Assembly (NCBI GenBank): GCA_965200545.1
Contig: CBDAUJ010000003.1
Span: forward strand, 398,504 to 462,503
Reading direction: 5' to 3'
DNA: 64,000 nt
Source of the DNA: Arenicellales bacterium
GTDB lineage: Bacteria > Pseudomonadota > Gammaproteobacteria > Arenicellales > JAJDZL01
Shown: piece by piece, positions 26,758-49,489 of the stretch
Position numbering within the stretch: position 1 is the stretch's first letter
Layout of the letters: every line of letters starts with the position of its first letter
Program-made: the position numbers and the translations under genes
Notes under the pieces: generated by a model
Database searches by the model: none
Told to the model about the DNA's origin: nothing
The model's input: the letters and a program-made list of their open reading frames with translations, nothing else

Positions 26758-26897
26758 TTCAAACTTGTCATGAACGCAATCGATATCCGCATATCATTTT
26801 GATCACTGCGGAATTGAAATGATTCGATGGCTGAATCAATCTCCGCATGGGGCTTCAGTGTCCGAAAGAACAGCTGCTTGGGATTGTGCTGCAAAGC

Positions 26898-27458: not shown

Positions 27459-27541
27459 TGTCAGGTTCCATAGAATGATGCTCAGACCTAAACTTGCGCC
27501 CTGACTGAGTCATCCAGGCCAGGGAAAGCTGCAGCTTAAAG

Positions 27542-28387: not shown

Positions 28388-28416
28388 GCCTTCGATTGGA
28401 GTATCAATGGCCTCAC

Positions 28417-29043: not shown

Positions 29044-29045
29044 GC

Positions 29046-30758: not shown

Positions 30759-30760
30759 AA

Positions 30761-31456: not shown

Positions 31457-31505
31457 TGCAGATTCCTCGGTTTATCTAGATCCATTCGATGTGCGATCAC
31501 TCGCT

Positions 31506-32192: not shown

Positions 32193-32638
32193 GCAACTTC
32201 GAACACTCGCTCGTCATCAAGAAACGGCTGCAAGCGCTCAATATAGCCCTGCCGAGGTCCCTCTTGCGCAATCAGCAGACAGTCATCTTCGAAACGCACG
32301 CGCCAGTGCAGATTGCCGGCAAAGTATCCAAGCTCAAGCGCAGCGGCGGCGTTTTCCGCCCGACAGCGTATCCAGATTTCTTCTTGCATCCGCACCACGA
32401 TGGCACGCTGCGGCTCAAGATCAAGGATCGCTCCGTTGACCAAATGCTGACTGCGAGGCAATGCGATCTGGCAGACCGTTCCGCAGTCAGTTGTGGCGCG
32501 CAAGCGATGGCGCTTCAAGTCCTCACGCTCCAGCACCAAGTATTCCACTTTGCCATCGTGCATATAATGGTGAATCTGATTGCGCAAATCCGGATCATCA
32601 ACAAACCCGAGTATGCCGGTAACGGTCAGACTGCTCAT
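32189..32638 (-). CDS. ureE: Urease accessory metallochaperone UreE (no His-rich tail)
   Basis: UreE-like size and the LGYFAGNLHW segment (counterpart of the GNRH motif). First gene of the ure cluster. Confidence 0.75.
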   Translation of the reverse strand: MSSLTVTGILGFVDDPDLRNQIHHYMHDGKVEYLVLEREDLKRHRLRATTDCGTVCQIALPRSQHLVNGAILDLEPQRAIVVRMQEEIWIRCRAENAAAALELGYFAGNLHWRVRFEDDCLLIAQEGPRQGYIERLQPFLDDERVFEVA

Positions 32639-32870
32639 TGCGCTTCAGAGACTTTGGAAGCGGCTTGCCCTGCACTGCCGGCCGCGGCGGTCGCAAGCCG
32701 AATCGATTCAGCGAAACTGTTTGCTCGACTCATCTGATGATCTGCGATCACTGGCCAGCTAGCTCCTGCTAGTCATAGCCGGCATTGAATGGACTCTCAA
32801 GGCATACCGCATCAAGCAAAACATTTTCCCTGCGGCATCGATTCTCTCCGCCGGCACTCTGGATTGGCGC

Positions 32871-33965
32871 TCAGCCGCCCAACGCTTCTTTGACCAGCTG
32901 GCAATCAGTCCCTCTATCGAATTCCGTCCGAGCGCTGATGTAGCCGAATTTTATCCACCAGTCGTTCGTCATTTCCCAATGATCTCTGAGCTGGCCATTG
33001 GTTTGCTCAAACGGAGGCGCGCCTTCCAGCACCCCGCAAAACCGGGCAGTGTCCTCGAGACTGTAGATGTACAACTCGCCTTTCGCGGGATCGTTTTTCG
33101 ATACATCCGTTGTATGCGATCCATCGCCCAGAATCGCCGCAACATCTTCCACTGAGAACCCGACCGCCTCTGCAATCACCTTGTTGGACTCTTCCGCATT
33201 GGCACGCCAATGCTCAACGCCTGCGTAGATGGCTTGCAAGGCTCTGACAGCCAAATCGCGGCGATTCTCAAGAAAGTCATTCGACATATACATCGCATCA
33301 GACAGCAGCGCGGACTGAAGCCAGAAACTATTGAGGGAATGAGCGGCCAGCGTAGATCCCTCCAAGCCGTCCAGAACCTGTGTATTGAACGGAGACCACA
33401 GTGAAGCCGCGGCGACCTGGCCGCTGATCATCGCAGCCGCTGCATCCGCTGCTATGAGATTCACCATCTGCACGTCACCCACATCAATTCCATTTTGCTC
33501 CAGCAAGATACCCACCATAATGTGGGACAAGCCGCCTTCCAGCACCGCGATCTGCTTGCCTTTGAGCTCACTGATATCCTTAATGTCCGGGTGCAGAATA
33601 ATCATATCCGCTCCATGTGACAGATTAGACAGGTTGATCAGCTTGAAACCCATATCCTCAGCCGTAGCAATCGGACCAAACTCAATGGTGCTGAAGACAA
33701 TGTCAAGCTGATTGGTCGACAGCAGGCTGAACAGCTGAATCGGATCTTCAATGACGGTATTCTCGAATTTCAAATCCGTCAGCTCAAAGGCTTCCGCCAC
33801 ATACTGAAAGCCGTAGCCGGGCCAGCTGAAATGCCCGATCCGGACCGTATCCTGAGCAATGGCGCTGCCGGCGCCGAACCAAGACAGCGCGGCCAGCGAC
33901 AGTGCCGCCAGCGACATTTTCCCCCACCGGACGCATCGTTTCAGTTCTTGAATCTGCTTGTTCAT
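32871..33965 (-). CDS. NitT/TauT-family (NMT1/THI5-like) ABC transporter substrate-binding protein
   Basis: Signal peptide (AALSLAALSWFGAGSAIA). Periplasmic SBP following a cognate ATPase and permease. Confidence 0.8.
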   Translation of the reverse strand: MNKQIQELKRCVRWGKMSLAALSLAALSWFGAGSAIAQDTVRIGHFSWPGYGFQYVAEAFELTDLKFENTVIEDPIQLFSLLSTNQLDIVFSTIEFGPIATAEDMGFKLINLSNLSHGADMIILHPDIKDISELKGKQIAVLEGGLSHIMVGILLEQNGIDVGDVQMVNLIAADAAAAMISGQVAAASLWSPFNTQVLDGLEGSTLAAHSLNSFWLQSALLSDAMYMSNDFLENRRDLAVRALQAIYAGVEHWRANAEESNKVIAEAVGFSVEDVAAILGDGSHTTDVSKNDPAKGELYIYSLEDTARFCGVLEGAPPFEQTNGQLRDHWEMTNDWWIKFGYISARTEFDRGTDCQLVKEALGG

Positions 33966-34013
33966 AATCTAAGCCTCCTTAAAAATTTTAGGTCTTTTGA
34001 CAATCCGTGACAT

Positions 34014-34862
34014 CTAGCTGATCTTGCCCTTGATCTCCTCGCGCATCATCCGATACAGCAGTTTTTCCATTTCCAGATAACCTGGATCCGCCAGCAGTTC
34101 TTCCTTTTTCAAATAGCGCTTGCCGCCTTTGAAATCCATCGCCAAATCGGCCTTGATCTTGCCGGGCTGACGAGTAAAAAACAGGATGCGGTCAGCCAAG
34201 TATATTGCTTCTTGGATATCATGTGTGACCATGATAATGGTCTTGCTTTCCCGCTCGATAATCTCGATAATCATCTCTTCCATTTCCCAAGTAACCTGCG
34301 CATCCAGCGCGCCAAAAGGCTCATCAAGCAAGAGCAGCTGGGGGTCTTGGGCAAGCGCCCGGGCAATAGCAACGCGCTGTTTCATGCCGCCGGACAGCTG
34401 CACTGGATAGGCGTCAGCAAAATCTTCAAGATGAACCAGTCGCAGGAACTGATCAACCCGCGCAATCCGCTCTGCCTTGGGCAGTTTCTCAATCTCCATG
34501 CCAAACTCGACATTTTTTCGAACCTTCAGCCAAGGAAAGGATGTGTATGCCTGAAATACCATGCCGCGCTCCGGACCGGGTCCTAAAATCGGCTGGCCAT
34601 ACACTTGAATGCTTCCGCGCGTGGGAAATTCAAGGCCGGCAATCAGCCGCAGCAGTGTTGTCTTTCCGCATCCAGAGGGTCCAATGAATGCAGTAACCTG
34701 ATTTTCTTGAATATTGACAGAAACATCATCCAAGGCTACGATCTTTCCGCCGACATATTCTTTCGAAGTTCGGACGGCGCTGACAGCTGGCTCGCCGGCT
34801 TCTCGACCGGCCTCCAGCGCCTTGTTTCGCTCCGTCCACTTTGAGTCTGAAGTCTTTGGCAT
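34014..34862 (-). CDS. NitT/TauT-family ABC transporter ATP-binding protein
   Basis: GPSGCGKTTLLRLIAGLE, LSGGMKQRVAIARAL, LLLDEPFGALD. Confidence 0.9.
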   Translation of the reverse strand: MPKTSDSKWTERNKALEAGREAGEPAVSAVRTSKEYVGGKIVALDDVSVNIQENQVTAFIGPSGCGKTTLLRLIAGLEFPTRGSIQVYGQPILGPGPERGMVFQAYTSFPWLKVRKNVEFGMEIEKLPKAERIARVDQFLRLVHLEDFADAYPVQLSGGMKQRVAIARALAQDPQLLLLDEPFGALDAQVTWEMEEMIIEIIERESKTIIMVTHDIQEAIYLADRILFFTRQPGKIKADLAMDFKGGKRYLKKEELLADPGYLEMEKLLYRMMREEIKGKIS

Positions 34863-34867
34863 TCGGG

Positions 34868-35752
34868 TTACCGCCTGGCGTGCTCATGGGGAAAGAGAAT
34901 TCGCGAGGCAAAGCGAAACGAAATGTCAGTGAGCACGCCCAGCACACCGATCGTCAAAATGCCGCCCATGATCAAATCGACATGCAAAAAGCGAGAAGCT
35001 CGCATCATCACTGCCCCGATGCCGTCGGTCGCTGCCACAATCTCTGCAATGACCAGGTAGGTCCAGGAAACCGCAATCATATTGCGCATTGAGTCGACAA
35101 TCTGGGGGGCGGCGGCTGGCAGCGCGACACGCAGGACAATTTGCCGCCGATTGGCGCCCATGGTTTGAGCCGACTCAATCAGCTCTTTCGGCACTGACAA
35201 GACATTATCCAGAATCAGTGCGATCAGGAAAAATACACACCCTAAAAACAGCAGTGCCAGTTTCGCGAAATCGGTGGGGCCAAAATAAACCAGCAGGAGC
35301 GGTACGAAAGATGCCGCTGGCAGATAGCGCAGGCCTCCCACCGTCGGATTGATCAGCGCGCGCAGCCTAATAAAACAACCCATCAGGAGGCCGAGCGGCA
35401 CCGCCAGTGCGCAGGCGGCAAAAAAACTTGCATAAATACGGTAGACACTTTTGCCAACATCCCCGATATAGCCTTTATCGCGAATCACCTCAACAATGCT
35501 GCCGACCACCTCACCAACGCCAGGCAGAAATTTCTGCTGCGACTCTGGGGTCAAGTAGTGGGCAATTTGCCAGATGGCAAAAAAGCAAATCACCCCCGCA
35601 ACACCCAGCACAAGCGAAGTGTTGCGGTTCAAAGTTCCCCCTATCTCCAGAAAGCGAGACTTTGGCGGCTGATAAAGCGGTGCCTCGCCAGTTGCGCTTT
35701 CGGAGTCGTTCAGAGGTCTATCTTTTTCGATTTTTTTGGGCATCATCCGCAC
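34868..35752 (-). CDS. NitT/TauT-family ABC transporter permease
   Basis: Polytopic protein with EAA-type loop ESAQTMGANRRQIVLRVALPAAAPQI. Confidence 0.85.
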   Translation of the reverse strand: MRMMPKKIEKDRPLNDSESATGEAPLYQPPKSRFLEIGGTLNRNTSLVLGVAGVICFFAIWQIAHYLTPESQQKFLPGVGEVVGSIVEVIRDKGYIGDVGKSVYRIYASFFAACALAVPLGLLMGCFIRLRALINPTVGGLRYLPAASFVPLLLVYFGPTDFAKLALLFLGCVFFLIALILDNVLSVPKELIESAQTMGANRRQIVLRVALPAAAPQIVDSMRNMIAVSWTYLVIAEIVAATDGIGAVMMRASRFLHVDLIMGGILTIGVLGVLTDISFRFASRILFPHEHARR

Positions 35753-35905
35753 TGGCCTGAAACGTCATTTTTGGTTTGGAAATATACCGCAAATCCAATG
35801 ATCGAAAAGAGGATTTTGCAAGCCGAATCAAAAGAGAATCTCGAATTCGAACCGATTGAATCGATTCACGCCCTGCAATGACACCCCTTGATCGGCAGGT
35901 TGCCA

Positions 35906-37380
35906 CTGTACTTTGATAGGAAAGCCTTGTACAATATGGCTTTTTCAAACCTCTGTCTTTCACCCGACGGGTGAAAGACAGAACTTGCCATAGGAGTACA
36001 AGGCCGATGAGGATTTTATCATACAAGCTGGGCGTCACGCGCAATGCGACCACCTCGCGCGCCGGGCTGCTGGCGCTCGCCGAGCTGCTGCGCAAGGTCG
36101 GGCTGGCGGAACTGGCGCGCACACACCTGCTGGCCGAGATCAGCCGCCGCCTGCTGGCGCTGGCGCTGCGCGGGCGCACCGAGGTCACCTTGGACATTGA
36201 CGCGACGGCGATCGAGGCTGACAAGAAGGAGGCCAAGTGGACGTACAAGAAGCACAAGGGATACATGCCGATGGTCGGGCATGTCGCCGAGACCGGGCAG
36301 GTGGCGGCGATTGACTTCCGCGACGGCAATGCGCCGCCGAGCAAGGACAATCTGGGGTTCATCCGCCAGTGCGAGGCGGCGCTGCCGGCCGGGGTGTCGG
36401 TGCGCCGGGTGCGCATCGACGCGGCGGGGTACAGCGCCGACGTGGTCAATTATCTGATGCAGAGCGGACAGGGCTTTGCGATCCGCGCGAAGATGGACGC
36501 CAGCGTCAAGGAGTCAATGAGCGCGATCCGGGACGGGCAGTGGGAGGCGCTGGTGCATGCGGACGGGACGCGGTCGAAGACGCAGGAGGCGGCGCGCACG
36601 CTGCATGCGATGGCTGACACTGGGGCGTTCACGCTGGCGGAGCGGCGAAAGCGCATTGCTGCGGGCGAGAACGCGCACATTGACGCGTTTGTGGATGCGG
36701 GCGGCAATGCGGCGTCGCGCGGGGCGTATCTGTACCGGGCGATTGCGACGAATCTTGATGGCAAGACGGATCATGAGATTGTGCAGTGGCACAGCCTGTG
36801 CGGGGAAACTTCGGAAAATAAAATAAAGCAGCTGCGCAGCGACTTTGCCGGTGCCAGGCTGCCGTGCGGGAAGTTCGGGGCCAATGCGGTGTGGCTGATG
36901 GTCAATGCGCTGGCGTACAATGTGCTGTGCCTGCTGCGGATGATGCTGCCGGCGAGGTGGCTGACCGCGCGGGCGCCGGCGCTGCGGTTTCATCTGTATG
37001 GCGCCGGCGGGCATGTGGTGCGCCACGGCCGGCAGCTGACGGTCAAGGTGCAGGCGCATCGGCACCGGGTGATCGGCGCGGCGCTGCGCTCGATAAGGGA
37101 GTTTGCGCTGCCCGCCTGACGGCGGCCGCCCGGCGGGCGGCAAAGGGCTTGGGATCGACCGATTGCCGCCGGGCAAGGCGGGCGTGCGCCTGCCGGGGGC
37201 GAGAGGCGGCGCAGTCGCGCCGCGCCGGTCGGTTTTGTGGAAAATGCGGCGCTGAAAGCGCGGCCGGACCGGAATCCGGTGCGGCCGGGCAGGTCGAATC
37301 GACGAATTCGGCGGCCCGTCTTCGCCCTCAGCATTGAACGTGCCGATTTGGGACACCAAACATCAAAGTTTCGAGTACAG
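35906..37380 (+). mobile_element. IS1380-family insertion sequence (boundaries tentative)
   Basis: Abrupt switch to very GC-rich DNA at about 36.0-37.3 kb. Contains an IS1380-type transposase. Possible imperfect ends: CTGTACTTTGAT (35906-35917) versus the reverse complement of 37362-37380 (CTGTACTCGAAACTTTGAT). No clear target duplication. Confidence 0.5.
36007..37119 (+). CDS. IS1380-family DDE transposase (N-terminal region shorter than usual)
   Basis: VTLDIDATAIEADKKEAKWTYKKHKGYMP, RIDAAGYS and GETSENKIKQLRSDF match the D-D-E blocks of IS1380/ISEcp1-type transposases. AGGAG precedes ATG 36007. Confidence 0.8.
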   Translation: MRILSYKLGVTRNATTSRAGLLALAELLRKVGLAELARTHLLAEISRRLLALALRGRTEVTLDIDATAIEADKKEAKWTYKKHKGYMPMVGHVAETGQVAAIDFRDGNAPPSKDNLGFIRQCEAALPAGVSVRRVRIDAAGYSADVVNYLMQSGQGFAIRAKMDASVKESMSAIRDGQWEALVHADGTRSKTQEAARTLHAMADTGAFTLAERRKRIAAGENAHIDAFVDAGGNAASRGAYLYRAIATNLDGKTDHEIVQWHSLCGETSENKIKQLRSDFAGARLPCGKFGANAVWLMVNALAYNVLCLLRMMLPARWLTARAPALRFHLYGAGGHVVRHGRQLTVKVQAHRHRVIGAALRSIREFALPA

Positions 37381-37592
37381 GAAAAACCTATAATCGCCAG
37401 ACAGCTCCGATTCTCGGGACTCTGCGAGAAGCGGCAGTCAAATGGCGGATCTTAAGATGCTTGAGCGGGCGATACTTTCTTGATGCGCCATTTGCAGTCT
37501 GAAACGCACTGTCGCCGCCTGGCAGCAGTGGATTGAAGAGGGAGCAATGCGCATCCTATCATGAAACAGTCACATCCTTATGAGGTAAACGC

Positions 37593-38660
37593 ATGAATGC
37601 CAGCCTACCCTCTGCTTGGGAGTTCGTTCCGCATCATCACCAAGGTCCGGCAGCGCAAAGCGGCAAGAATGATCATATCTACTCTCCGCGCAATCACAAC
37701 GGCGTGTTCAAGTCGCGCGGCCTGTCCACATTCATGGGGGCGCCCTATTGTCCGCCGCACCGGAGCGCAATTCGTGAGATGGGCGCCAAAGTTTGTTTTC
37801 TCGGGGTTCCGTGGGACCAGGGGCAAATGGTTCGAGCCGGAACCTCGCAGGGGCCCTCTGGAATTCGTGAGGCGTCCACTCAATACTCGCCCTACATGTT
37901 TGAGTTCGATGTCGACCTGATGACTTTCTTCCGGCCGGTTGACTGCGGTGACGTGCCCATTGTCCCCGGCAACAACGAGCGCAGTCACGAATACATTTAT
38001 CAGTACATTACTGAGTGTCTTGAAGGCGACGCAAAAGTCATTCTTTGCGGCGGCGATCACTCGGTGCCTATTCCCGGCTCGCGGGCGCTGTCGGATTTTC
38101 ATAAAAACGGCAAGATCGGCTATCTGCATGTCGACTGCCATCTGGACTCTGCGCCTGATTGGGAAGGCTCGCCCTACACGAATTGCTCGGGTCCGGCAAG
38201 AGCTTTTGATCTGCCAAACTGCGCTGGCGAAAATATGGCGCACATGTGCTCGCGCAATGGACTCAACCCGAAGGACTGGGTCGACTTCTGGAGCGATAAC
38301 GGGGTCCGCATGATCCCCATGCAGGAGGTTGTCGACCGCGGCATCGAGGCCTGCACCAAAGAAATCTTTGAAATTGCCTGGAATGGAACCGATGGCGTCT
38401 ACTGGTCTTGGGATACCGATTCGCTGGATGCGAGCTGCATGCCAGGCACAACAGCGCCCGAGACGTTTGGTTTGAAACCGCGCGAGGCGATCCGGCATGC
38501 ACGAATCGCGGGAACGTACGGCGCTGATGTATTTGAGGTATCTGAGCTGACTCCGCATTTTGATGTCAGTGACATGAGTATCAAGCTCGCCTGCTGCCTG
38601 ATCTATCAGTACCTTGGCAGTCGTGCAAAAACACTTCGCGACCGAGGACAAGCCGCTTGA
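37593..38660 (+). CDS. Arginase-fold ureohydrolase, subunit type A (copy 1), full metal-ligand set
   Basis: GGDHSVPIPG, GYLHVDCHLD (DxHxD), SWDTDSLD (DxD). GAGG Shine-Dalgarno. Confidence 0.85.
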   Translation: MNASLPSAWEFVPHHHQGPAAQSGKNDHIYSPRNHNGVFKSRGLSTFMGAPYCPPHRSAIREMGAKVCFLGVPWDQGQMVRAGTSQGPSGIREASTQYSPYMFEFDVDLMTFFRPVDCGDVPIVPGNNERSHEYIYQYITECLEGDAKVILCGGDHSVPIPGSRALSDFHKNGKIGYLHVDCHLDSAPDWEGSPYTNCSGPARAFDLPNCAGENMAHMCSRNGLNPKDWVDFWSDNGVRMIPMQEVVDRGIEACTKEIFEIAWNGTDGVYWSWDTDSLDASCMPGTTAPETFGLKPREAIRHARIAGTYGADVFEVSELTPHFDVSDMSIKLACCLIYQYLGSRAKTLRDRGQAA

Positions 38661-38711
38661 TCAGAAGTCGCTTGACAGCGCAAAAACAATCAGATTTTGT
38701 GAGAGAGAAAA

Positions 38712-39746
38712 ATGAATCCTGTGAAGAACTTTGAGCATTTGTTCTCGCCGCTGGGCGATCCCGAGAATTTCAAGTCACTGGGTGTCGTGACTTTCATGCG
38801 CTCTGCGCAAGTTGATATGGAAAGCGATGCGCTGCGCCAAAGCGGCGCGCGGTTTGCTTTTGTCGGCATTCCCTATGATGAGGGCAACGTTGGCAAACCG
38901 GGGTCTGAAGATGGCCCGCAGGCATTTCGGGTTGCGAGTCATGAATACTTCCCCTACTGGTTTGAGTATCGCGTTGACCTGGCAGGCACATGCGTGGACT
39001 GCGGCAATGTGCGCGTGCCCAAGGTGATGCCGGAATTGGCGCATGATCGCATCTATCGGGCAATTCGTGAAGTGCTTGCTGCGGGCGTTACACCGGTGAT
39101 CTGCGGCGGCGACCGCTCCATTTCAATCTCGGCCTCGAAAGCTTTGTCTGACCACATCGGTCACCAGAAAAAGATTGGCTACATGCACTTCGGCGCCCAT
39201 CTGCAGATGGCAGACACCTGGGCCGGCGAGAAAATGGCCAGCACTTGCACATTGGCTCGTGTGAGCGAGCTCAAGAACATTCATGCGGACAATATCGCCC
39301 ATATCGGCGCCCGCAATTCAATGAATCCGCGCGACCACATTGAGCTGGCAGAGGTACGCGGGATTCGTTTTCACGCCATGGATGAAGTCGTGGAGCGAGG
39401 CGTATCGACGGTCGTCAACGAGGCGGCAGATCGTGTATGGAACGACACTGACGCGCAATACTTGAGTTTCGACATGAACATCATGGACGCCTCAGCCGCA
39501 CCAGGTGTAACTGCGCCCGAGCCCGGCGGTTTCGAATCCCGTGAGATGATGCAGACCGCCACATTGCTCGGCGAGCGCGGTTCAGTGAGCTTGATCGAAG
39601 TGTCTGAGCTGGCGCCGGTTTTTGACGTGAGCGGCACGACCTCAAAATTAGCTGCCTGCGTTGTCCTGCGTCTCATGGCGGCCATGGCGCGGCAGCGCGG
39701 TGAGTCTGTAGATCCCAATCTTCGGCGGGAAAGCCTGAGAAAATAG
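38712..39746 (+). CDS. Arginase-fold ureohydrolase-like protein, subunit type B (copy 1), degenerate metal ligands
   Basis: Family fold retained (DEGNVGKPGSEDGP, AAPGVTAPEPGG), but GGDRS (His to Arg), FGAHLQ (Asp to Gly, Asp to Gln) and SFDMN (second Asp to Asn). Confidence 0.8.
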   Translation: MNPVKNFEHLFSPLGDPENFKSLGVVTFMRSAQVDMESDALRQSGARFAFVGIPYDEGNVGKPGSEDGPQAFRVASHEYFPYWFEYRVDLAGTCVDCGNVRVPKVMPELAHDRIYRAIREVLAAGVTPVICGGDRSISISASKALSDHIGHQKKIGYMHFGAHLQMADTWAGEKMASTCTLARVSELKNIHADNIAHIGARNSMNPRDHIELAEVRGIRFHAMDEVVERGVSTVVNEAADRVWNDTDAQYLSFDMNIMDASAAPGVTAPEPGGFESREMMQTATLLGERGSVSLIEVSELAPVFDVSGTTSKLAACVVLRLMAAMARQRGESVDPNLRRESLRK

Positions 39747-40693
39747 ATTGCTCGCTCTTCTGTGCGGGAGCGGAGCGCCCGCAAGGCATTTTCATTTGAA
39801 CAGCGCACTGGCATCCCTGTGACCTGTATCGAACGCAAATCTCCCAGTGAGCTTAACCTAGGTCACCAGCTGCGGAGCATCCGCAATCGTTCCACACCTG
39901 CCGAATGCGCTCATTGCATTGACGAATCGCTGCGAATCTCACTTTCGCCTTGTCGCCAGCTGTTGCCCAAACCACGGCACTTTTGCAGCGAATGGGCAGC
40001 CGGCCGCACTGGCCGCCATATCGACAACCGCTGAAAATGTGAACTCCAAGCTGCCGACTGCAAGCTGCTCAAAGCTGGCCAAATATCCAAGCTTCAAACA
40101 CACGACAGGACACCGAGAATGGAAGCGGCGTAATGATTGCGAGTCGGCGGACTCAAACTAAGAGCAAGCGCACCAGGCACACTCAGTACATGGCCCGCAA
40201 TTGTTCGTAATATTTCGGACATCATTCAAACCTTGATTGCCTGTCGATCTGTCTGGCATGACTCGCCAGACTGCCACTCATGGCATCAACCTGCAACTGA
40301 ATCGCCGGCAACCTGCGCAACGTTCGACCGCACTGGCAGCGGCAGATTAATACAGCGACTTGCACTCCACTCCACACATTGATCTGCTCCAAGCCGCCTG
40401 CGCGACCTGTATACCTTCTATGCCGAGACGCACAAGAACGATACCGCCTTGCATTGATCCGTTGAGCGGATACGACGAGCGCTGCGTCTTAAAACGCGGC
40501 GACTGACTCTCAGGCCGAGTCAATCATCTTTTTTGCTGCGGCCCGCGGAGGCTCCGAGAAATTCACCGGCAGGTTGCGATGATTTTTTACAGCCTCATTG
40601 CGGAATCAGATCATCACTTAAATCATATCCAGACCCGCATAAATGTTAGAATTGACGCAGAATCAAAACAATCATCACGAAAGGAGCAAGACG

Positions 40694-41542
40694 ATGTGTA
40701 ACGTATGCGGCTGTGGATCCGAACAAACGCATAACCACGAGCATAGCGAACATAAGAAGCATGACGATAATGCCAAACAGCGTCTTCATTTCGGAGGTAA
40801 CGAGGCGAGAGTGTCTGTTGCCGGATTCAACAGTTCCGAGCTGGTCACCATTGAGAGAAATATTCTTGATAAAAATCAATCTTATGCAAACCAAAATCGA
40901 TCTTTTTTCTTGGACAACAAACTGTTCGCAGTCAATCTGCTGTCCAGTCCGGGCGCCGGCAAGACCAGTCTGCTGATCAAAACCATTGAGAATCTGCAGC
41001 AGGCGATCCCAATTTATGTGATTGAAGGCGATCAGGAGACCGACAACGACGCTGAACGCATTCGCCGCACCGGTGTTGAGGCTGCGCAAATCAATACTGG
41101 AAAAGGCTGTCATCTTGATGCCCATATGGTCGGTCACGCCCTTGAGGAGTTCACGTTTGACCCAGCCGGAGGCTTGGTGCTCATCGAAAACGTCGGAAAT
41201 CTGGTGTGTCCCGCTGCATTCGACTTGGGCGAGTCCTGCAAAGTCGTGATCTTGTCGGTCACAGAAGGCGAGGATAAGCCGCTGAAATATCCCGATATGT
41301 TCGCTGCCTCGGACCTGATGATCATCAGCAAATCCGATTTGCTGCCATATTTGCGGTTTGATGTCGAACAGGCAATCGAATACGCCAAGCGCGTCAACCC
41401 GGCTTTGGAAGTCATACAACTGTCTGTCGAGTCCGGCGACGGACTTCAGCAATGGGAAAAGTGGCTGCTGAGCGATGCCAATGCTCAAGCGCCACGCTCA
41501 CCGCAAAGGCAGTCTGTAGGAAGCTGCTGTGCCCATGCATGA
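40694..41542 (+). CDS. hypB: HypB-like nickel-binding GTPase metallochaperone
   Basis: N-terminal MCNVCGCG plus His-rich stretch, P-loop SPGAGKTSLL, ENVGNLVCPA, SKSDL. AAGGAG precedes ATG 40694. Confidence 0.9.
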   Translation: MCNVCGCGSEQTHNHEHSEHKKHDDNAKQRLHFGGNEARVSVAGFNSSELVTIERNILDKNQSYANQNRSFFLDNKLFAVNLLSSPGAGKTSLLIKTIENLQQAIPIYVIEGDQETDNDAERIRRTGVEAAQINTGKGCHLDAHMVGHALEEFTFDPAGGLVLIENVGNLVCPAAFDLGESCKVVILSVTEGEDKPLKYPDMFAASDLMIISKSDLLPYLRFDVEQAIEYAKRVNPALEVIQLSVESGDGLQQWEKWLLSDANAQAPRSPQRQSVGSCCAHA

Positions 41543-41930
41543 GCTGGCGCTGTCCCGAAGTCTAGTCGAAATGGTGGACGACTACGCACTGCGTCACCGT
41601 GCAAGCCGAGTCAAGCAGATCAATCTTCGCCTGGGCGAGTTGTCCGCGATGACGAGAGCCCTGTATTTCTGCTTTGAATCCGTCTCCAAAGGCACCGTAT
41701 GCGAAGGCGCGACTCTTTCTATAGAGACTGTGCCCTTGACTGTCTACTGCAGTCACTGCGACGAGACCAAGAAGCCTTCGGGTCGCTACAGTTTTCGCTG
41801 CAGCGACTGCGGCATGCCCACACCCAAAGTCATCACTGGGCGCGAACTGCAGCTGGTCTCGATCGAACTGGCATCATCAGATCAGACATCAGTTGCGCTC
41901 GACACCCGCGAAACCGCCGCAACCGCATAA
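41535..41930 (+). CDS. hypA: HypA-like nickel metallochaperone
   Basis: Starts MHELAL (the MHE Ni-binding N-terminus). Zn motifs CSHC...CSDC. The ATG overlaps the hypB stop (ATGCATGA). Confidence 0.88.
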   Translation: MHELALSRSLVEMVDDYALRHRASRVKQINLRLGELSAMTRALYFCFESVSKGTVCEGATLSIETVPLTVYCSHCDETKKPSGRYSFRCSDCGMPTPKVITGRELQLVSIELASSDQTSVALDTRETAATA

Positions 41931-41958: not shown

Positions 41959-43038
41959 ATGACAATCAGCCCAAACAATGCGTGGAGTTTCGTCGCGCAT
42001 CAGCATCAGGGGCCGCATCAGGAAACCGATACCGATGCCCATACGCGGTCTCCAAGCAAACACAACAGCAGCTTCAAGGCGGAAGGCATTCTCACTTTCA
42101 TGGGTGCGCCTTACTGTCCACCTGAACGCGACAAAGTGCGAGCCGCGGGCGCTAAAATCTGTTTTCTTGGGGCTCCTTGGGACCAAGGTACCATCGTACG
42201 CACGGGCACCTCCAGCGGACCGCACGGCATTCGCGAGGCATCATCGCAGTATTTTTCTTATATGTTTGAATATGATGTCGATTTGATGACCTTTTTTCGA
42301 GTGGTCGACTGCGGCGACATCCCGATTGTTCCGGGGAACAACACACTCTCACAGCAATACATGTGCGATTATGTCACCGAATGTCTCGAAGGCGGCGCGA
42401 AAGTGATTCTCGTCGGCGGCGACCATTCGGTCCCCATCCCCGGTGCGCGAGCCCTGTCGCAGTATCTCAGCCGCCACAACCCTGAGGGAAAAATGGGCTA
42501 TCTGCATGTGGACTGCCATTTGGATGCTGCGGTCGATTGGGCAGGCATTGAGATTACCAATGCCTCGGGGCCCACTGAAACCTTCAAGCTGCCAAACGTC
42601 AACGCCGAAAACATGGCCCACATGGGCTCACGAAACGGCTTGAACCCGAAAGACTGGATGGATTTTTGGGTCGACAACGATATGCCCATTTACTCAATGG
42701 CACAGGTTGTCGAGCGCGGCGTTGAAGTGTGCGGACGTGAAATTCTTGAGCGTGCCTGGAATGGCACCGATGCAGTTTATCTTTCTTGGGACACCGACTC
42801 GATCGACTGTAGCTGCATGCCTGGAACCAGCTGTCCTGAAAGCTATGGCCTCAATGCGCGCGAGGCGCTCGCCTTTGCGCGACTGGCCGGGCAGTTCGGT
42901 GTCGATGTGCTTGAGCTGGCAGAGCTCTCGCCCGTTTTCGATGTCAGTCAGATGAGCGCAAAACTCGCTTGCAACCTGATTTATCACTATCTCGGCAGCC
43001 GCGCCAAGACTTTGCGTGACAGCAGCCAAAGTCCTTGA
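41959..43038 (+). CDS. Arginase-fold ureohydrolase, subunit type A (copy 2), full metal-ligand set
   Basis: Co-linear with A1. GGDHSVPIPG, GYLHVDCHLD, SWDTDSID. Trimmed to MTISPNNAWSF by analogy with A1 (MNASLPSAWEF). Confidence 0.85.
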   Translation: MTISPNNAWSFVAHQHQGPHQETDTDAHTRSPSKHNSSFKAEGILTFMGAPYCPPERDKVRAAGAKICFLGAPWDQGTIVRTGTSSGPHGIREASSQYFSYMFEYDVDLMTFFRVVDCGDIPIVPGNNTLSQQYMCDYVTECLEGGAKVILVGGDHSVPIPGARALSQYLSRHNPEGKMGYLHVDCHLDAAVDWAGIEITNASGPTETFKLPNVNAENMAHMGSRNGLNPKDWMDFWVDNDMPIYSMAQVVERGVEVCGREILERAWNGTDAVYLSWDTDSIDCSCMPGTSCPESYGLNAREALAFARLAGQFGVDVLELAELSPVFDVSQMSAKLACNLIYHYLGSRAKTLRDSSQSP

Positions 43039-43093: not shown

Positions 43094-44137
43094 ATGAATC
43101 CTGCAAAAGCCTACTTGCATCTGTTTTCTCCGCTTGGCGGCGAAAACGCCGATAACTACCGTACGCCAGGCCAAATTTCATTTTTGCGCTCGAAGTTCAT
43201 GTCTTTGGATGACGCAGCCTTGGCGGAAACCGATGCGCCTTATGTGTTCATCGGCGTGCCGTTCGATGAAGGCAATGTGGGCAAACCCGGCAGCGAGGAC
43301 GGACCGCGCGAGTTTCGGGTTGCATCGCTGGATTATTTTCCGTTCTGGTTCGAGTTCAATGTCGATCTGCACGGCAGTGCCATCGACTGCGGCGATGTCT
43401 CGATGCCGAGAGTCAGTCCTGACGTTGCCCGCGAGCGCATCTACCGAGCGGTCAGCAAAGCGCTGGCCGCCGGCAAGACACCGATCATTTGCGGCGGCGA
43501 CCGATCGGTCTCGATACCCGCAGCCAAAGCTCTCTCAGATCATCTCGGTGCAGACCAGAAAATGGGCTATCTGCATCTGGGCGCCCATCTGGACATGGCA
43601 GACAGCTGGGCCGGCGAGCGCGAAGTCAGCACCTGTACCCTGGCGCGCATCACCGAGCTGAACAATCTCAGTATGGAGCACGTCGCGCATATCGGCGCCC
43701 GCAATTCATTCAATCCCAAAGACCATGTCGATCTCGCAAAATCCCGCAACATGCGTTTCTACCCCATGCATGAAGCCCTTGAGCGTGGCATCGATACCGT
43801 CATTGACGAAGCGGTCAGCCGCGTTTGGAACGGTACCGATGGCCAGTATCTGAGTTTCAACTTCAATGTTCTGGACTCTTCAGCCGCACCCGGCGTCACC
43901 GCCACTGAGCCTGGCGGATTGGAATCGCGCGAAATTATGCGTGTTGCCTCAAGTATCGCCAAACAGCAAGGTGTCAGCGTGATCGACGTGACCGAACTGT
44001 GCCCGATGTTTGATGTCAGCGGCTCCACTTCACGCACCGCCGTTTGTGTCGTGCTTCGAATCATGGCAGAGATTGCTCACCTGCGCGGGCAGACGCTGGA
44101 TGAATCGATTCGCCGCCCCGGCTGGCAATACAACTAA
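43094..44137 (+). CDS. Arginase-fold ureohydrolase-like protein, subunit type B (copy 2), degenerate metal ligands
   Basis: Co-linear with B1. GGDRS, LGAHLD (first Asp to Gly), SFNFN (both Asp to Asn). Trimmed to MNPAKAYLHLF by analogy with B1 (MNPVKNFEHLF). Confidence 0.8.
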   Translation: MNPAKAYLHLFSPLGGENADNYRTPGQISFLRSKFMSLDDAALAETDAPYVFIGVPFDEGNVGKPGSEDGPREFRVASLDYFPFWFEFNVDLHGSAIDCGDVSMPRVSPDVARERIYRAVSKALAAGKTPIICGGDRSVSIPAAKALSDHLGADQKMGYLHLGAHLDMADSWAGEREVSTCTLARITELNNLSMEHVAHIGARNSFNPKDHVDLAKSRNMRFYPMHEALERGIDTVIDEAVSRVWNGTDGQYLSFNFNVLDSSAAPGVTATEPGGLESREIMRVASSIAKQQGVSVIDVTELCPMFDVSGSTSRTAVCVVLRIMAEIAHLRGQTLDESIRRPGWQYN

Positions 44138-44175: not shown

Positions 44176-45255
44176 ATGAAATCAAGAAAGTCACATTCAT
44201 TGCGGACGCTGATGCAATGCGCTGCGACAGCGGTTGCTGTCGCACTTGGGGCCATGGTGACACAGGTATCGGCAGCTGATGCGCTCAATGTCCTGGTCTG
44301 GTGCGATCATGCCGATGAGAAACTGATCAAGCCGTTTGAAGACAAGCATAACGTAAAAGTCAATGTCAAAACCTATGAGGGCACTGGCACTGCACTGTCC
44401 ATCATTGAGCAGTCCGCTCCCGGCGACTGGGACGTGCTCGTGGTCGACGCGCCGGATGCACCGGTGGTCGCTGGCCTCGGACTACTTGCGCCGCTGAATG
44501 ATGCCGACCTGCCGCTTGATAATCTGTTCGATCCGCTGACCGCAGCCGGTTTCAATTATGTCGACGGGAATCGATACACAGTGCCGGAGAAATTCGGCTA
44601 CTACGGGGTGGTCTATAACAAAGACAAGGTTGATCCGGAAGACATGAAGTCCGCGCAAGTCATGTGGAATGACAAGTATGCGGGACGCATCGCAGTCTAC
44701 GATTACTACTTTCCGGCCATGCAGCTGATTGCCATCTCCATGGGCATCGCACCGGATGATATTACCATGGAGCACTTGCCTCAGATTCGTGAGAAACTGC
44801 TCGAAATGCGCTCGAATGTCAAAATGATCGGTGATATTGTGAGTGTGCAGAACGCGCTGGTCAATGGCGATGTGGACATTATCGTGAATGCTGCTGAATT
44901 TGCGGTCTCCAACCTCATGCCCTCGCTTCCGCATCTGGATTGGACTATTTTTGAGGAAGGCGGCCTGATCTGGATTCAAGGCCTGAGTATCATGAAAGAC
45001 TCAAAGCAAAAGGATTTAGCTCTGGAGTTCGTCAAGCATGTAATCAGCCCCGAGGGACAAAGCGCACTGGCAACTTCGGAATGCTACTGGGCGATGCCTG
45101 CCAATGCGACAACCGAACTGTCGGCAGACGAGAGAGCGATCCTGCGCTGGGATGAGCAATCCGGGTTCTTGGCGCGTTCAGTGCCATCGGCGATCAGTCA
45201 GCCGGATATCGATGCAGAAATGCTGGATATGTGGACTGAATTTTTGCAAAAATGA
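44176..45255 (+). CDS. PotD/PotF-like (family 1) ABC transporter substrate-binding protein
   Basis: AGGAGG Shine-Dalgarno, signal peptide ending VSAADA, polyamine-type SBP length and composition. Confidence 0.8.
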   Translation: MKSRKSHSLRTLMQCAATAVAVALGAMVTQVSAADALNVLVWCDHADEKLIKPFEDKHNVKVNVKTYEGTGTALSIIEQSAPGDWDVLVVDAPDAPVVAGLGLLAPLNDADLPLDNLFDPLTAAGFNYVDGNRYTVPEKFGYYGVVYNKDKVDPEDMKSAQVMWNDKYAGRIAVYDYYFPAMQLIAISMGIAPDDITMEHLPQIREKLLEMRSNVKMIGDIVSVQNALVNGDVDIIVNAAEFAVSNLMPSLPHLDWTIFEEGGLIWIQGLSIMKDSKQKDLALEFVKHVISPEGQSALATSECYWAMPANATTELSADERAILRWDEQSGFLARSVPSAISQPDIDAEMLDMWTEFLQK

Positions 45256-45386
45256 TTGAAATCAAGCGAATACTCAGGCATTCGCTACAGTGATGCCGGA
45301 CTTGATGGGGAGCTGACTTCACGTCCGGCATTACGTTATTCTGACCATAGCGTTGAGGTAATTGCATGCGATAATTCGGCACAGAC

Positions 45387-46247
45387 ATGGCGACGGCACA
45401 ACAAAAATCCCTTTTTGATTTAACGAAGTGGGCAATTCACCCGGCCTTTTGGTTCACGGTGATTTTTTTCGCTATACCGCTTGCAATCATGCTTGCCGTC
45501 AGTTTCTGGCAGCGCGTATACGGAAAACTAGCAGCGACTTGGGACTTGGCCAATTACGCAAAGTTTTTTGGCCGAGATTACCTCCTTGAATCACTGTTCA
45601 ATTCGATTGAAGTGACGGTTTTGTCGACTCTCATCAGTATTGTTCTTGCCTACCCTCTGGCCTACGCACTGGCCTATAAAGTTCCGCCACGCCTGCAGCG
45701 CCTGATACTGCTGCTGGCAGTGATGCCTTTTTGGACTGCATACGTGGTGCGCTCCTACAGCTGGCTGCTGGTGATTGCTGAAAATGGTGTCATCAACGTG
45801 ATTCTGACTGGTTTGGGGCTCGTTGAGCAACCGCTTGAAATGGCGTATAGCCGCGGTGCAACGGTGCTCGGGTTTGTTCACTTTTTCACCATGCTACTGA
45901 CCTTGACCATCTATGCGAATCTGGTTCAAATCAAGCCTTCCTACCGGAAAGCCGCCACCGACCTCGGCGCGAATTCGCTGCAGGCGTTTTTGCGCATCAC
46001 CTTGCCGCTCAGCATGCCCGGTGTAGCGGTGGGCGGCTTTATTTCGTTTGTAATTGCGATCGGCGATTACATTACTCCGCAGATTTTGGGCGGCGGCACG
46101 GAAGTTCTGGTGCCGCAGGCGATCATATTGCAAGTATCGCGCGCTGCCAACTTTCCGATGGCTTCAGTGATGAGCGTAACGCTGATGATTGTCGTGATTG
46201 TCGTCTACCTCATTTCAGCCAAGCACATGAAAATGGAGCGGGTGTAA
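45387..46247 (+). CDS. PotB-like ABC transporter permease
   Basis: Six-TM binding-protein-dependent permease with EAA-like loop (YRKAATDLGANSLQAFLRITLP). Confidence 0.85.
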   Translation: MATAQQKSLFDLTKWAIHPAFWFTVIFFAIPLAIMLAVSFWQRVYGKLAATWDLANYAKFFGRDYLLESLFNSIEVTVLSTLISIVLAYPLAYALAYKVPPRLQRLILLLAVMPFWTAYVVRSYSWLLVIAENGVINVILTGLGLVEQPLEMAYSRGATVLGFVHFFTMLLTLTIYANLVQIKPSYRKAATDLGANSLQAFLRITLPLSMPGVAVGGFISFVIAIGDYITPQILGGGTEVLVPQAIILQVSRAANFPMASVMSVTLMIVVIVVYLISAKHMKMERV

Positions 46248-47038
46248 TGCGACAGTGGCTGCGCAACATGCCGTTTTTCGGCTACATCGCGCTGGCTCTG
46301 GGGTTTATCTATCTCCCGGTTGTGGTACTGGTGATTTTTTCGTTTCAAGACGGACTGCTGCCCGTGCCGCCGTTCCATGGGCCCAGTCTGCAATGGTATG
46401 ACAAGATGCTCGAAAATGATCGTCTGGTCGACGCTTTGCTCAACTCCGTAGCTGTGGCTGTGCTATCGTCGGCAGCCACCACAGTGCTGGGATTTTTGGC
46501 CGCTTACGGAATGGTCAAGCGGCCGCCGCGCTGGATCGGCAGCATTCGGTTCGTATTGATGGCGCCGCTGACGGTGTCCTACCTGATTATTGGCATTGGC
46601 CTGCTGATCACATTGAACATCTTGGGAATACCAAAATCGCTGTTCGCTGTTGGCATCGGACACGCTGTGATCAATCTGCCGCTTTGCTTCGCAATCATTT
46701 ATTCTCAGTTCGGCGATCATATGAAGAACATTGATGCGGCGGCACGGGATCTCGGCGCAAGCGATTTTCAAACCATGATTCGAGTCATCGCGCCGATCAT
46801 GAAACCGTCTTTATTCGCTGCGTTTTGCCTTTCCGCAACACTGTCGTGGGATGAGTTTATCATTGCGTTTCTGCTGAGCCGTTTTGAAGTCACGCTGCCC
46901 GTAATAATTTTCGAGATGCTGCGGGCCGGATTGACGCCGGAGGTGAATGCGGCCGGCACTGTTGTATTCGCAATATCGTTCACGTTTGTGGCAATCGCAG
47001 CAAGCGTTATGTTTCTTAGCAACCGGAAAACACCATGA
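46247..47038 (+). CDS. PotC-like ABC transporter permease
   Basis: Start overlaps the previous stop. EAA-like loop (IDAAARDLGASDFQTMIRVIAP). Confidence 0.85.
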   Translation: MRQWLRNMPFFGYIALALGFIYLPVVVLVIFSFQDGLLPVPPFHGPSLQWYDKMLENDRLVDALLNSVAVAVLSSAATTVLGFLAAYGMVKRPPRWIGSIRFVLMAPLTVSYLIIGIGLLITLNILGIPKSLFAVGIGHAVINLPLCFAIIYSQFGDHMKNIDAAARDLGASDFQTMIRVIAPIMKPSLFAAFCLSATLSWDEFIIAFLLSRFEVTLPVIIFEMLRAGLTPEVNAAGTVVFAISFTFVAIAASVMFLSNRKTP

Positions 47039-48117
47039 GCCATGAACCGCTGGTGGTTTTAGATGGCGTGACCAAAACATTTGGTGAAGTCATCGCTGTT
47101 GATCGCGTGAGTCTGAATATTGAGCCGGGTGAATTTCTGGTTCTGCTCGGGCCATCAGGGAGCGGCAAGACAACCTTGCTTTCGATGCTCGGCGGATTCA
47201 TCACACCAACGGCCGGCAAGGTGCTGATCCGCGGCGAGGACGTTACGCACCTGCCCCCCGCGACGCGACCGACCGTCACAGTGTTTCAAGACTATGCGCT
47301 TTTCCCTCATATGAGCGTAAGTGACAACATCGGATTTGGCCTGGTGATGAGAAAAGTGCCGAAACGCGAGCGCCTGCGGCGCATATCGGCGGCACTCGAA
47401 AAAGTCGGCCTGACCGGCTTTGGCGCGCGCGGCGTTCACCAGCTCTCCGGCGGCCAGCGCCAGCGGGTTGCATTGGCGCGCGCAATCGCCGTGGAGCCGA
47501 CAGTCCTGCTGCTGGATGAGCCCCTCGGAGCACTGGATTTGAAAATTCGCCAGAAAATGCAAGCAGAGCTGGTGCATCTGCAAAAGAACCTCCATTCAAC
47601 ATTTGTCCATGTAACGCATGACCAGGATGAGGCCATGAGTATTGCAGATCATATTGCGCTGGTCAACCGTGGAAAAATTGAAGACTACGGTTCCCCAGAG
47701 CGAATCTACCTGCGTCCGGCCACTTTGTTCACGGCAAGATTCATGGGTGAAACGAATATCATTGAGGTGCAGCCGACGGCGGCCAGTGACGGCGAGAAGC
47801 TGATCGTTGACAGTCCGCTCGGCGAATTGACGCTGCCGCTTGCGAACTTGGACAGCAGCATACCCCACAATATTGCACTGCGGCCGGAGCAAATCAAATT
47901 AAGCGACGGAAACATCGCAGCCGGTCATCTGGCGCTGGGAGATGCCAAAGTGACTGAGGTCGTATTTCAAGGCACCCATCGGCTCTGTCGCGCGATAGGC
48001 GGCACGGCAATGGATACCGAACTGCTGATCAAGGTTGCGCCGGATCATCAGGTTGTGGCGGGCGATATGCTTGCTTTACAAGCGCGCAGAACCGATGTGA
48101 CGCTATTGTCGAAGTAA
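47035..48117 (+). CDS. PotA-like ABC transporter ATP-binding protein
   Basis: GPSGSGKTTLLSMLGG, LSGGQRQRVALARA, LLLDEPLGALD, plus a C-terminal TOBE-like region. Confidence 0.9.
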   Translation: MSHEPLVVLDGVTKTFGEVIAVDRVSLNIEPGEFLVLLGPSGSGKTTLLSMLGGFITPTAGKVLIRGEDVTHLPPATRPTVTVFQDYALFPHMSVSDNIGFGLVMRKVPKRERLRRISAALEKVGLTGFGARGVHQLSGGQRQRVALARAIAVEPTVLLLDEPLGALDLKIRQKMQAELVHLQKNLHSTFVHVTHDQDEAMSIADHIALVNRGKIEDYGSPERIYLRPATLFTARFMGETNIIEVQPTAASDGEKLIVDSPLGELTLPLANLDSSIPHNIALRPEQIKLSDGNIAAGHLALGDAKVTEVVFQGTHRLCRAIGGTAMDTELLIKVAPDHQVVAGDMLALQARRTDVTLLSK

Positions 48118-48296: not shown

Positions 48297-49190
48297 ATGC
48301 ATGACAGGCCAGTGCTCATGCCCAGCATTGTTGTCTCTGCCGGTGCGGCAATATGGGGTCTTTTCTGGATACCCGTCCGTCAGCTGGACAGCAACGGAAT
48401 TTCGGCCGCATGGACATCACTGATTGCGCTGGGATTGATTGGCATTGTGTTCGTGGTGCTGTTTGCGACTCGATATCTCAAAACGCGTCGAATTCCTTGG
48501 AATGTACTGCTGACCGGGTTAATTGGCGGCGGGTACTTCGTGCTGTATACCTGCGCGCTGATACTCACAGAAGTCGTCAAGGCGATCTTGCTGATTTACC
48601 TGGCTCCAATCTGGAGCATTATGCTCGGCAGATTTATGCTCAACGAGAAAATAACGACGTATCGCGTGATCGCAGTCTGCTGCGGCATTTCTGGCCTGGT
48701 CGTCGTGCTGGGCATTTCAGACGGCAATTTGCGATGGACCGAAGTCGGCGACTTGATGGCGCTTGTCGCCGGGTTTCTCTGGTCCTTCGCGGCAGTTCGA
48801 ATCAGGCAGCGTCCAGAAATTCCAGTGTGGGAGCAGGTCGGCGCCTTTCACATCGGCGGCGCGCTGATCGCAGCACTGTTCATTATCATGCCATTTCAAG
48901 GGCTGCAAAAAACACCCGCTTTGAACGCATTGGTCGATTCCGTCTTGTGGCTAGCAGTTTTTATGTTCTTTTTTGTCATAGCAGTTTATCTCGTTTGGTG
49001 GGGTACGCGAATTCTAAGTCCCACACGAGTCGGTTTGCTCTCGATGACAGAAGTGGCATTCGGAGTCGGTTCGGCTGCGATTTTAGCTGGAGAGCCGTTC
49101 GGCTGGGTGCAAGTTACTGGCGTAATTCTGATTCTGTCGGCGGCATTTATTGATGTGCTTGATCGATTTCCAAATTCAAGCTCCGCCTGA
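48297..49190 (+). CDS. EamA/DMT-superfamily transporter
   Basis: About 10 predicted TM helices in two similar halves, 297 aa. Confidence 0.75.
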   Translation: MHDRPVLMPSIVVSAGAAIWGLFWIPVRQLDSNGISAAWTSLIALGLIGIVFVVLFATRYLKTRRIPWNVLLTGLIGGGYFVLYTCALILTEVVKAILLIYLAPIWSIMLGRFMLNEKITTYRVIAVCCGISGLVVVLGISDGNLRWTEVGDLMALVAGFLWSFAAVRIRQRPEIPVWEQVGAFHIGGALIAALFIIMPFQGLQKTPALNALVDSVLWLAVFMFFFVIAVYLVWWGTRILSPTRVGLLSMTEVAFGVGSAAILAGEPFGWVQVTGVILILSAAFIDVLDRFPNSSSA

Positions 49191-49489
49191 TCGATGCGCA
49201 TCCCCAATTCGAAATTTGATCTCGCATGGCGGCCAATTCAGCCATTTTCATCCGTTCGTACTCAACTTGATGCCGCAGTCACTGCATACACTGGCAGCAA
49301 ACTCTTTTCCGCCCAGTTTAACGAAACAACAATAACGCACAAACATGAGGATACAAATCACACTGCATCCATTTTGGTTGAAGACGAGACAACCAGAAAA
49401 CTTTATTTTCGTCATGCATGTGATCAGTGGTGCAGTCCGGAATCACATCGCAAAATGCCGCGCGCAACTGCCAGCCTGATCGAATCCTT

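Follow-up and report, generated by a model that had tools for sequence, protein, structure and literature searches.

The 64,000-nucleotide stretch analysed here (contig CBDAUJ010000003.1 of assembly GCA_965200545.1, positions 398,504 to 462,503; hereafter the window) comes from an Arenicellales bacterium and contains a hypB-hypA gene pair (hypBA) with paired genes of the metformin/dimethylguanidine hydrolase family on either side. Judged from sequence and by analogy with characterised homologues, HypB and HypA very probably form a dedicated nickel-insertion pair for these heteromeric dinickel ureohydrolases, and are not hydrogenase maturation factors. The initial annotation of this DNA had leaned towards a ureohydrolase client, and that preference is now strongly backed by the homology of the flanking genes to MefH and DmgH, by synteny, by the genome-wide lack of hydrogenase genes and by experiments on homologous operons. 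The genome assembly comprises 3.41 Mb in 8 contigs and is 95% complete. The closest HypA relative (93% identity) belongs to an Arenicellales metagenome-assembled genome (MAG), which places the window in this order.

The hypB-hypA pair and its flanking hydrolase genes

The central part of the locus has the following features.

37593-38660, + strand: A1, catalytic alpha subunit of pair 1, 355 aa (PF00491, 178 bits)
38712-39746, + strand: B1, non-catalytic beta subunit of pair 1, 344 aa (PDB match to metformin hydrolase subunit B)
39747-40693, no strand: non-coding spacer between B1 and hypB, 947 bp, with a terminator-like hairpin and a promoter-like site inside
40694-41542, + strand: hypB, nickel GTPase metallochaperone, 282 aa (TIGR00073, 285 bits)
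41535-41930, + strand: hypA, nickel metallochaperone, 131 aa (PF01155, 99.6 bits; TIGR00100, 94.7 bits)
41959-43038, + strand: A2, catalytic alpha subunit of pair 2, 359 aa (PDB match to metformin hydrolase subunit A)
43094-44137, + strand: B2, non-catalytic beta subunit of pair 2, 347 aa (PDB match to metformin hydrolase subunit B; start ATG 43094 checked)

The hypB-hypA pair is real and intact, with all family motifs present, as the initial annotation had described, and both proteins score above the curated cut-offs (121.2 bits for TIGR00073, 28.9 for PF01155 and 88.1 for TIGR00100). HypB begins with MCNVCGCG, in which the CxxCGC motif (CNVCGC) occupies residues 2-7, and has six histidines among its first 35 residues. 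It also contains the P-loop GAGKT at residue 87, ENVGNL at 165 and SKSD at 212, as well as a metal site in the G-domain made up of GCH at 138 and VCP at 171. The sequence AGGAG is located 6 nt 5' of the hypB start codon (ATG at 40694). HypA has the nickel site MHE at residues 1-3 and a zinc site of the CxxC...CxxC type, consisting of CSHC at 72 and CSDC at 89; the residues of all three motifs are invariant among 16 homologues. Exactly one HypB and exactly one HypA are encoded in the genome.

The two genes overlap by 8 nt (ATGCATGA, at 41535-41542), as had been noted before, and the identical overlap is found in 41 of 59 related hypB-hypA loci, which makes it a conserved feature and not a matter of chance. 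In the public gene call hypA begins two codons earlier, at GTG 41529, giving a protein of 133 aa. Since this start would bury the MHE N-terminus, ATG 41535 is the biologically sensible start and likely the true one; all HypA homologues start at MHE.

Subunits and chaperones were compared with the proteins of Pseudomonas mendocina pMET-2, a plasmid of a metformin degrader. HypB shares 54% identity with its counterpart in the metformin hydrolase operon of this plasmid. For HypA the identity is 46-46.7%, the best plasmid-borne match; hydrogenase-linked HypA proteins are at most 41% identical to it. The best PDB match of both A1 (E 4e-167) and A2 (E 1e-159) is metformin hydrolase subunit A (entries 8snf, 8x3g and 8ryi), and that of B1 (E 2e-145) and B2 (E 2e-154) is subunit B; after these, the PDB protein closest to A1 and A2 is GdmH (7esr/7oi1), at about E 1e-42 to 1e-43. 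A1 and A2 share 65% and 63% identity, respectively, with MfmA of P. mendocina, and B1 and B2 share 58% and 63% with MfmB. Between the two pairs the identities are 65% (A1 and A2) and 57% (B1 and B2), so that A1B1 and A2B2 are old paralogues and not products of a recent duplication.

According to the crystal structure of MefH, the nickel ligands are found in the alpha subunit and are degenerate in beta (PMC11399263). At the ligand positions taken from this structure (H158, D183, H185, D187, D276 and D278), A1 and A2 keep all six residues (HDHDDD). The corresponding positions are degenerate in B1 (RGHQDN) and B2 (RGHDNN), as they are in the metal-free MfmB (RGQDNN). Tandem alpha-beta genes of the arginase fold with ligands confined to alpha, the mark of the MefH/MfmAB/DmgH family, are thus present twice in the window, and hypB-hypA stands directly 5' of one of these pairs, the hypA stop preceding the A2 start by 28 nt.

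Conservation of the hypBA-hydrolase module

One genome per species was scanned, which yielded 75 loci with HypA relatives in other genomes. The open reading frames (ORFs) of all related loci were labelled by phmmer with the window's own proteins as queries, and 50 host genomes (43 with a hydrolase-linked module and 7 outgroup genomes) were searched for hydrogenase and urease. Where HypA is at least 52% identical to that of the window (about 67 loci), hypB-hypA is nearly always followed directly by alpha-beta, and the order hypB-hypA-alpha-beta seen in the window recurs on pMET-2 and at about 60 other loci. Where HypA is at most 42% identical, the order is reversed (hypA-hypB) and no hydrolase is found nearby. 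Li et al. 2024 had reported that the paired arginase genes of this clade mostly adjoin HypAB homologues (PMC11271267).

Three types of module were distinguished. In the first (32 loci, including hypBA-A2B2 of the window), alpha-beta is accompanied by a PotDBCA-type importer, which in the window comprises the following genes.

44176-48117, + strand: PotD/B/C/A-type ABC importer (family profile matches)
44176-45255, + strand: PotD-like binding protein
45387-46247 and 46247-47038, + strand: importer permeases
47035-48117, + strand: importer ATPase

In the second type (16 loci, from Methyloceanibacter and other Hyphomicrobiales), alpha-beta is followed by ureE-ureAB-ureC-ureG. The third type, Arenicellales hypA-A1-B1, is found at 5 loci. 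At four of them (L064, L067, L074 and L081; Arenicellales / Ca. Poriferihabitaceae) hypA is directly 5' of A1-B1, but the single hypB maps to another, unlinked position of the chromosome, hence the linkage of hypA to alpha is tighter than that of hypB. In G036, where coordinates were compared, hypA and hypB are more than 1 Mb apart. The same eight-gene module also occurs in four independent contigs with precomputed Pfam labels. At one further locus (L026, an uncultured Pseudomonadales MAG), a short alpha fragment and then another full-length beta gene stand between hypB-hypA-alpha-beta and the Pot genes, and these extras may represent a partial tandem duplication of the pair.

The module types are also reflected in the protein trees. 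The HypA tree was built from a 125-column alignment and its deep order is weak. Window HypA falls in a clade of Arenicellales Pot-linked modules with a support of 97, and pMET-2 HypA is on the urease-linked/DmgH side. Module labels are strongly clustered on this tree, requiring 17 changes versus 39.6 expected, a value matched in none of 200 shuffles. The hydrogenase-linked loci L079 and L080 appeared inside the ureohydrolase-linked HypA set; given the 125 columns, this was treated as long-branch misplacement and not as signal. In the tree of alpha subunits, which sorts by the same module types, A2 belongs to the Pot-linked clade, and the alpha subunit of L014, the locus of a sister genome, matches it at 99% identity. 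A1 groups with the Arenicellales hypA-A1-B1 type (88% identity to L055) in a clade with a support of 100, and this clade shares its side of the tree with MfmA and the urease-linked enzymes. From the two trees it follows that the only HypA of the genome is the cognate type for A2B2, and that A1B1 is without a cognate hypA.

The pocket residues sort in a similar manner. The specificity positions compared were 184 and 288-290, which are Cys184 and Asn288-Ser289-Ala290 in MefH (C / N-S-A) and Ser184 and Ser-Thr-Ser in DmgH (S / S-T-S). The combination C / T-T-A is found in A1, in all five A1B1-type alphas and in 15 of 16 urease-linked alphas, and C / T-S-C in A2 and 30 of 32 Pot-linked alphas. Neither A1 nor A2 matches the MefH or the DmgH signature at these positions, and no substrate is therefore assigned to A1B1 or A2B2.

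Searches for the NiFe-hydrogenase large subunit (PF00374), HypD (PF01924) and HypC (PF01455) gave no match in the whole 95%-complete genome, the window included, and the HypF model (TIGR00143, 741 positions) was matched at just 26 bits and over its first 88 positions, a match taken to be an acylphosphatase-like domain. The NiFe maturation set is thus missing with respect to the large subunit and HypC, HypD and HypF (HypE was not searched separately). The initial annotation had reported the window to be free of hydrogenase genes and had named a hydrogenase operon without its own hypAB elsewhere in the genome as part of what would speak against a non-hydrogenase role; the first statement extends to the genome, and no such operon was found in the 95% assembly. 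A hidden hydrogenase was rejected on the basis of these four family searches of the genome and of one search across the 50 genomes.

Among the 43 module genomes the NiFe large subunit is clearly present in one (G042) and marginally in another (G030, an N-terminal match of 27.6 bits), with none in the rest, and all 17 closed chromosomes with the module are without hydrogenase. All seven outgroup genomes contain a hydrogenase, located beside hypA where coordinates were checked (G048, contig C20). Locus L078 of G042 is from the only genome that combines a hypBA-alpha-beta-urease module with a clear NiFe large subunit (191 bits). UreC is absent from 10 of the 43 module genomes, five of these ten being closed chromosomes (G002, G003, G004, G006 and G008). 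Of the three clients considered, these urease-less genomes evidently offer just the alpha-beta hydrolase.

Candidate clients of HypB and HypA

The sister genome G001 (locus L014) bears on the choice between clients. It aligns collinearly with the window (88-95% nucleotide identity) and is without the window segments 26304-28490 and 29024-39219. It has thereby lost ureD, ureC, ureAB, ureF and ureE of the urease cluster described below (urease-1), the NitT-type importer, an insertion sequence (IS), A1 and the 5' half of B1, and what remains is a ureG fragment joined to a 3' fragment of B1. In contrast, hypB-hypA-A2-B2-pot is intact in G001 (88% nucleotide identity). The sole urease of G001 is a different one, the ureC of which matches that of urease-1 at 68% DNA identity along 876 bp. 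Since urease-1 and A1 were lost and hypBA-A2B2 was kept, hypBA tracks A2B2, and not urease-1 or A1B1.

The loss of A1/B1 in the sister genome could be taken to mean that HypB and HypA serve A2B2 only, and that A1B1 either obtains its nickel by itself or from another source, or has become inactive with the loss of its cognate hypA. The same is suggested by the A1-type alphas of five other Arenicellales genomes, which have their own adjacent hypA of a different HypA clade, and by the position of A1 next to the IS and of B1 behind the 947-bp spacer with its terminator-like hairpin. We nevertheless hold this restriction to be unlikely. The ORFs of A1 and B1 are intact, A1 retains every alpha ligand, and the beta subunits of MefH and DmgH are exchangeable in vitro, which hints at a tolerance of non-cognate partners. 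Furthermore, no remnant of hypA or hypB was found between the IS and A1 (35700-37650), which gives no support to a recent loss of a cognate hypA.

The hairpin in the spacer (40504-40522) is followed by a T-run, and the promoter-like site (40586-40614) lies ahead of hypB; both come from a consensus scan and stand at consensus level only. The spacer is unique in its own genome and mostly aligns with the sister locus, the covering blocks being 88-92% identical overall. A decayed gene in the spacer was considered and rejected, as blastx, run with it on the ORFs of all related loci, gave matches to L014 alone, in several frames and on both strands. A scan of the whole window with Rfam, spacer included, gave no family at gathering score and hence no guanidine riboswitch.

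The other candidate that the initial annotation had left standing beside the ureohydrolase is the urease, the genes of which are located about 8 kb away.

27542-32638, - strand: urease-1 cluster, order ureE-ureF-ureAB (fused)-ureC-ureG-ureD (NCBIfam and Pfam)
32189-32638, - strand: ureE
31506-32192, - strand: ureF
30761-31456, - strand: ureAB fusion
29046-30770, - strand: ureC
28417-29043, - strand: ureG
27542-28387, - strand: ureD

HypB and HypA might serve urease as in Helicobacter, in addition to the hydrolases or in place of them, with nickel passing from HypA to UreE, UreG and urease, and the linkage of hypBA to the ureohydrolases would then reflect just a shared urea/nickel regulon. The fused gamma/beta subunit (UreAB), correctly recognised in the initial annotation, is of the Helicobacter style, and UreE of urease-1 has no His-rich tail, which UreE of H. 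pylori is not known to have either. A urease cluster stands directly 3' of alpha-beta in 16 related loci, and the genome has a second urease with an in-frame stop in its ureF. Against these points, urease-1 has its own complete UreD/E/F/G accessory set, urease is missing altogether from 10 of the 43 genomes with hypBA-alpha-beta, and G001 lost urease-1 with hypBA left intact. The window HypA is moreover a weak match to H. pylori HypA (E 2e-11), as compared with 46.7% identity to HypA of the MfmAB operon. The hydrolases of the MefH family release urea (PMC11399263), and metabolic coupling is therefore sufficient to explain the co-location. We consider both a urease client and the regulon explanation that goes with it improbable; of the two clients proposed initially the ureohydrolase is supported, and the urease has gained no support.

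The second urease (C5:126613-131503, the ureG part of which is locus L005) has the order ureD-ureA-ureB-ureC-ureE(short)-ureF-ureG, with separate gamma and beta genes and a UreC 54% identical to that of the window. Its ureF is broken by a single in-frame stop at C5:130410-130412.

That hypBA is a relic or accessory of NiFe-hydrogenase maturation, the hydrogenase being in the unassembled part or recently lost, is hardly credible: both genes do exceed the curated HypA/HypB equivalog cut-offs, the assembly is 95% complete and G042 has module and hydrogenase together, but the large subunit, HypC, HypD and HypF are all missing from the genome, 17 of 17 closed module-bearing chromosomes are without hydrogenase, and the genes are intact, with conserved motifs, in a module kept across Alpha- and Gammaproteobacteria.

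The assignment of hypBA to both ureohydrolase pairs has some observations against it. The assembly is incomplete by the figure just given, and the cognate HypA of the A1/B1 alpha clade belongs to a HypA clade other than that of the window, so that service of A1 by the window HypA is an assumption. Nickel permeases of the NiCoT (PF03824) and HupE/UreJ (PF04955) families were not found in the genome, and tblastn with the pMET-2 HupE protein gave no match there. Furthermore, Li et al. 2024 observed no significant difference in activity upon chaperone co-expression in nickel-supplemented extracts of E. coli (PMC11271267), which indicates that the chaperones are conditionally, and not absolutely, required. 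Other published work on the homologues found HypAB to be needed for activation of MefH and DmgH. With respect to nickel supply, the genome encodes at least four putative nickel enzymes, yet neither NiCoT nor HupE/UreJ was detected.

Proposed mechanism and relation to known systems

By analogy with other HypAB systems, HypB would bind nickel at its N-terminal CxxCGC/His-rich site and at the Cys-His-Cys site of the G-domain, and would hand it over to the MHE N-terminus of HypA in a GTP-dependent manner. HypA would then dock on the alpha-beta hydrolase complex and fill the two-nickel site of alpha. The gene spacing (-8, 28, 55 and 38 nt along hypB-hypA-A2-B2-pot) and the conserved synteny suggest that these genes form one transcript, and A1/B1, with its cognate hypA absent here, probably borrows the same hypBA. 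The hydrolases are predicted to cleave a substituted guanidine into urea and an amine. The neighbouring urease would take up the urea, urease-1 being the likely consumer of what the hydrolases release, and a DAO-GcvT demethylase encoded nearby may process further products. For the homologues, nickel-dependent activity, an alpha2beta4 hexamer and HypAB dependence in vivo have been reported (PMC11399263, PMC11271267, PMC10927577), and knockout of metAB abolished growth on metformin (Li et al. 2024, PMC11271267).

The remaining features around the module are as follows.

32871-35752, - strand: NitT/TauT-type ABC importer
about 35886-37352: GC-rich IS, between the NitT/TauT-type importer and A1
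48297-49190, + strand: EamA transporter
49427-51904, + strand: DAO-GcvT fusion enzyme (dimethylglycine/sarcosine dehydrogenase-like)

The left 24 kb of the window contain housekeeping genes (ffh, dnaK/dnaJ, recN and a Bmp-type ABC system). The IS copy of the window is without about 214 bp found between the matching blocks of 99%-identical copies on contigs C6 and C8, and has accordingly undergone an internal deletion near its 5' end. About ten full-length paralogues of the DAO-GcvT enzyme (30-38% identity) are spread over the genome. Loci L028 and L055 have a homologue directly 5' of hypB, a position that hints at a connection with N-methylated hydrolase products.

The Pot-linked A2B2 clade is widespread in marine Alpha- and Gammaproteobacteria, often in genomes without urease. 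We tentatively propose, as a possibility that may well fail, that one HypBA matures two anciently diverged hydrolases and that the marine Pot-linked A2B2 clade acts on a natural guanidino compound different from both dimethylguanidine and metformin. Such a substrate may for example be an N-methylated guanidine, the amine product of which would feed the adjacent DAO-GcvT demethylase.

The principle that HypAB loads nickel into arginase-fold hydrolases was already published in 2022-2024, and the window is a confirmatory example of it. Modestly new are the probable sharing of one hypBA by two divergent hydrolase pairs and the large Pot-transporter-linked clade without an assigned substrate. The automatic labels of HypA and HypB as hydrogenase maturation proteins are wrong for a whole clade of these proteins, because their genes travel with nickel ureohydrolases in genomes without hydrogenase.

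The canonical HypA/HypB of NiFe-hydrogenases (Cupriavidus necator pHG1, Rhizobium) belong to the same families as the window proteins and share all metal and GTP motifs with them. They are, however, at most 41% identical, the outgroup loci have hypA-hypB next to hydrogenase genes, and the window genome has no large subunit, HypC, HypD or HypF.

With HypA/HypB of Helicobacter pylori the window shares a nickel client other than hydrogenase, a fused urease gamma/beta subunit and a UreE without a His-rich tail. On the other hand, the sequences are distant (HypA E 2e-11, HypB E 5e-44), the window genome has no hydrogenase and the module persists in genomes without urease.

In Synechocystis, GhaA/GhaB and GdmH (Sll1077-1079) resemble the window by description, as HypA/HypB homologues there activate a nickel-dependent guanidine-type hydrolase of the arginase family. 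GdmH is a homo-oligomer and the product of a single gene, in contrast to the alpha/beta pair of the obligate type in the window. This precedent had been cited in the initial annotation, which had missed the closer MfmAB/MefH/DmgH systems with hypB-hypA directly 5' in the same order. For the same type of operon, Tassoulas et al. 2024 drew the same inference and likewise cited GhaA/GhaB for GdmH (PMC10927577).

The closest likeness is to MfmAB/MefH/MetCaCb (Pseudomonas mendocina MET, Aminobacter) and to DmgH, which share the order hypB-hypA-alpha-beta, as on pMET-2, and the heteromeric alpha/beta composition with nickel ligands in alpha only. DmgH is also clustered with urease, and a 70%-identical Hyphomicrobium homologue is a dimethylguanidine hydrolase (Sinn et al., PMC11399263). 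Unlike these systems, the window combines a single hypBA with two divergent alpha/beta pairs on either side, and has a PotDBCA-type importer in place of HupE/UreJ and CodB, as well as pockets of the C/TTA and C/TSC types, so that the substrate may differ. The host, too, is a marine-type Arenicellales genome and not a metformin degrader isolated from wastewater. The HypAB-dependent guanidine-hydrolase module, known from cyanobacteria and from metformin degraders of wastewater, is found here in Arenicellales and in many uncultured Alphaproteobacteria as well.

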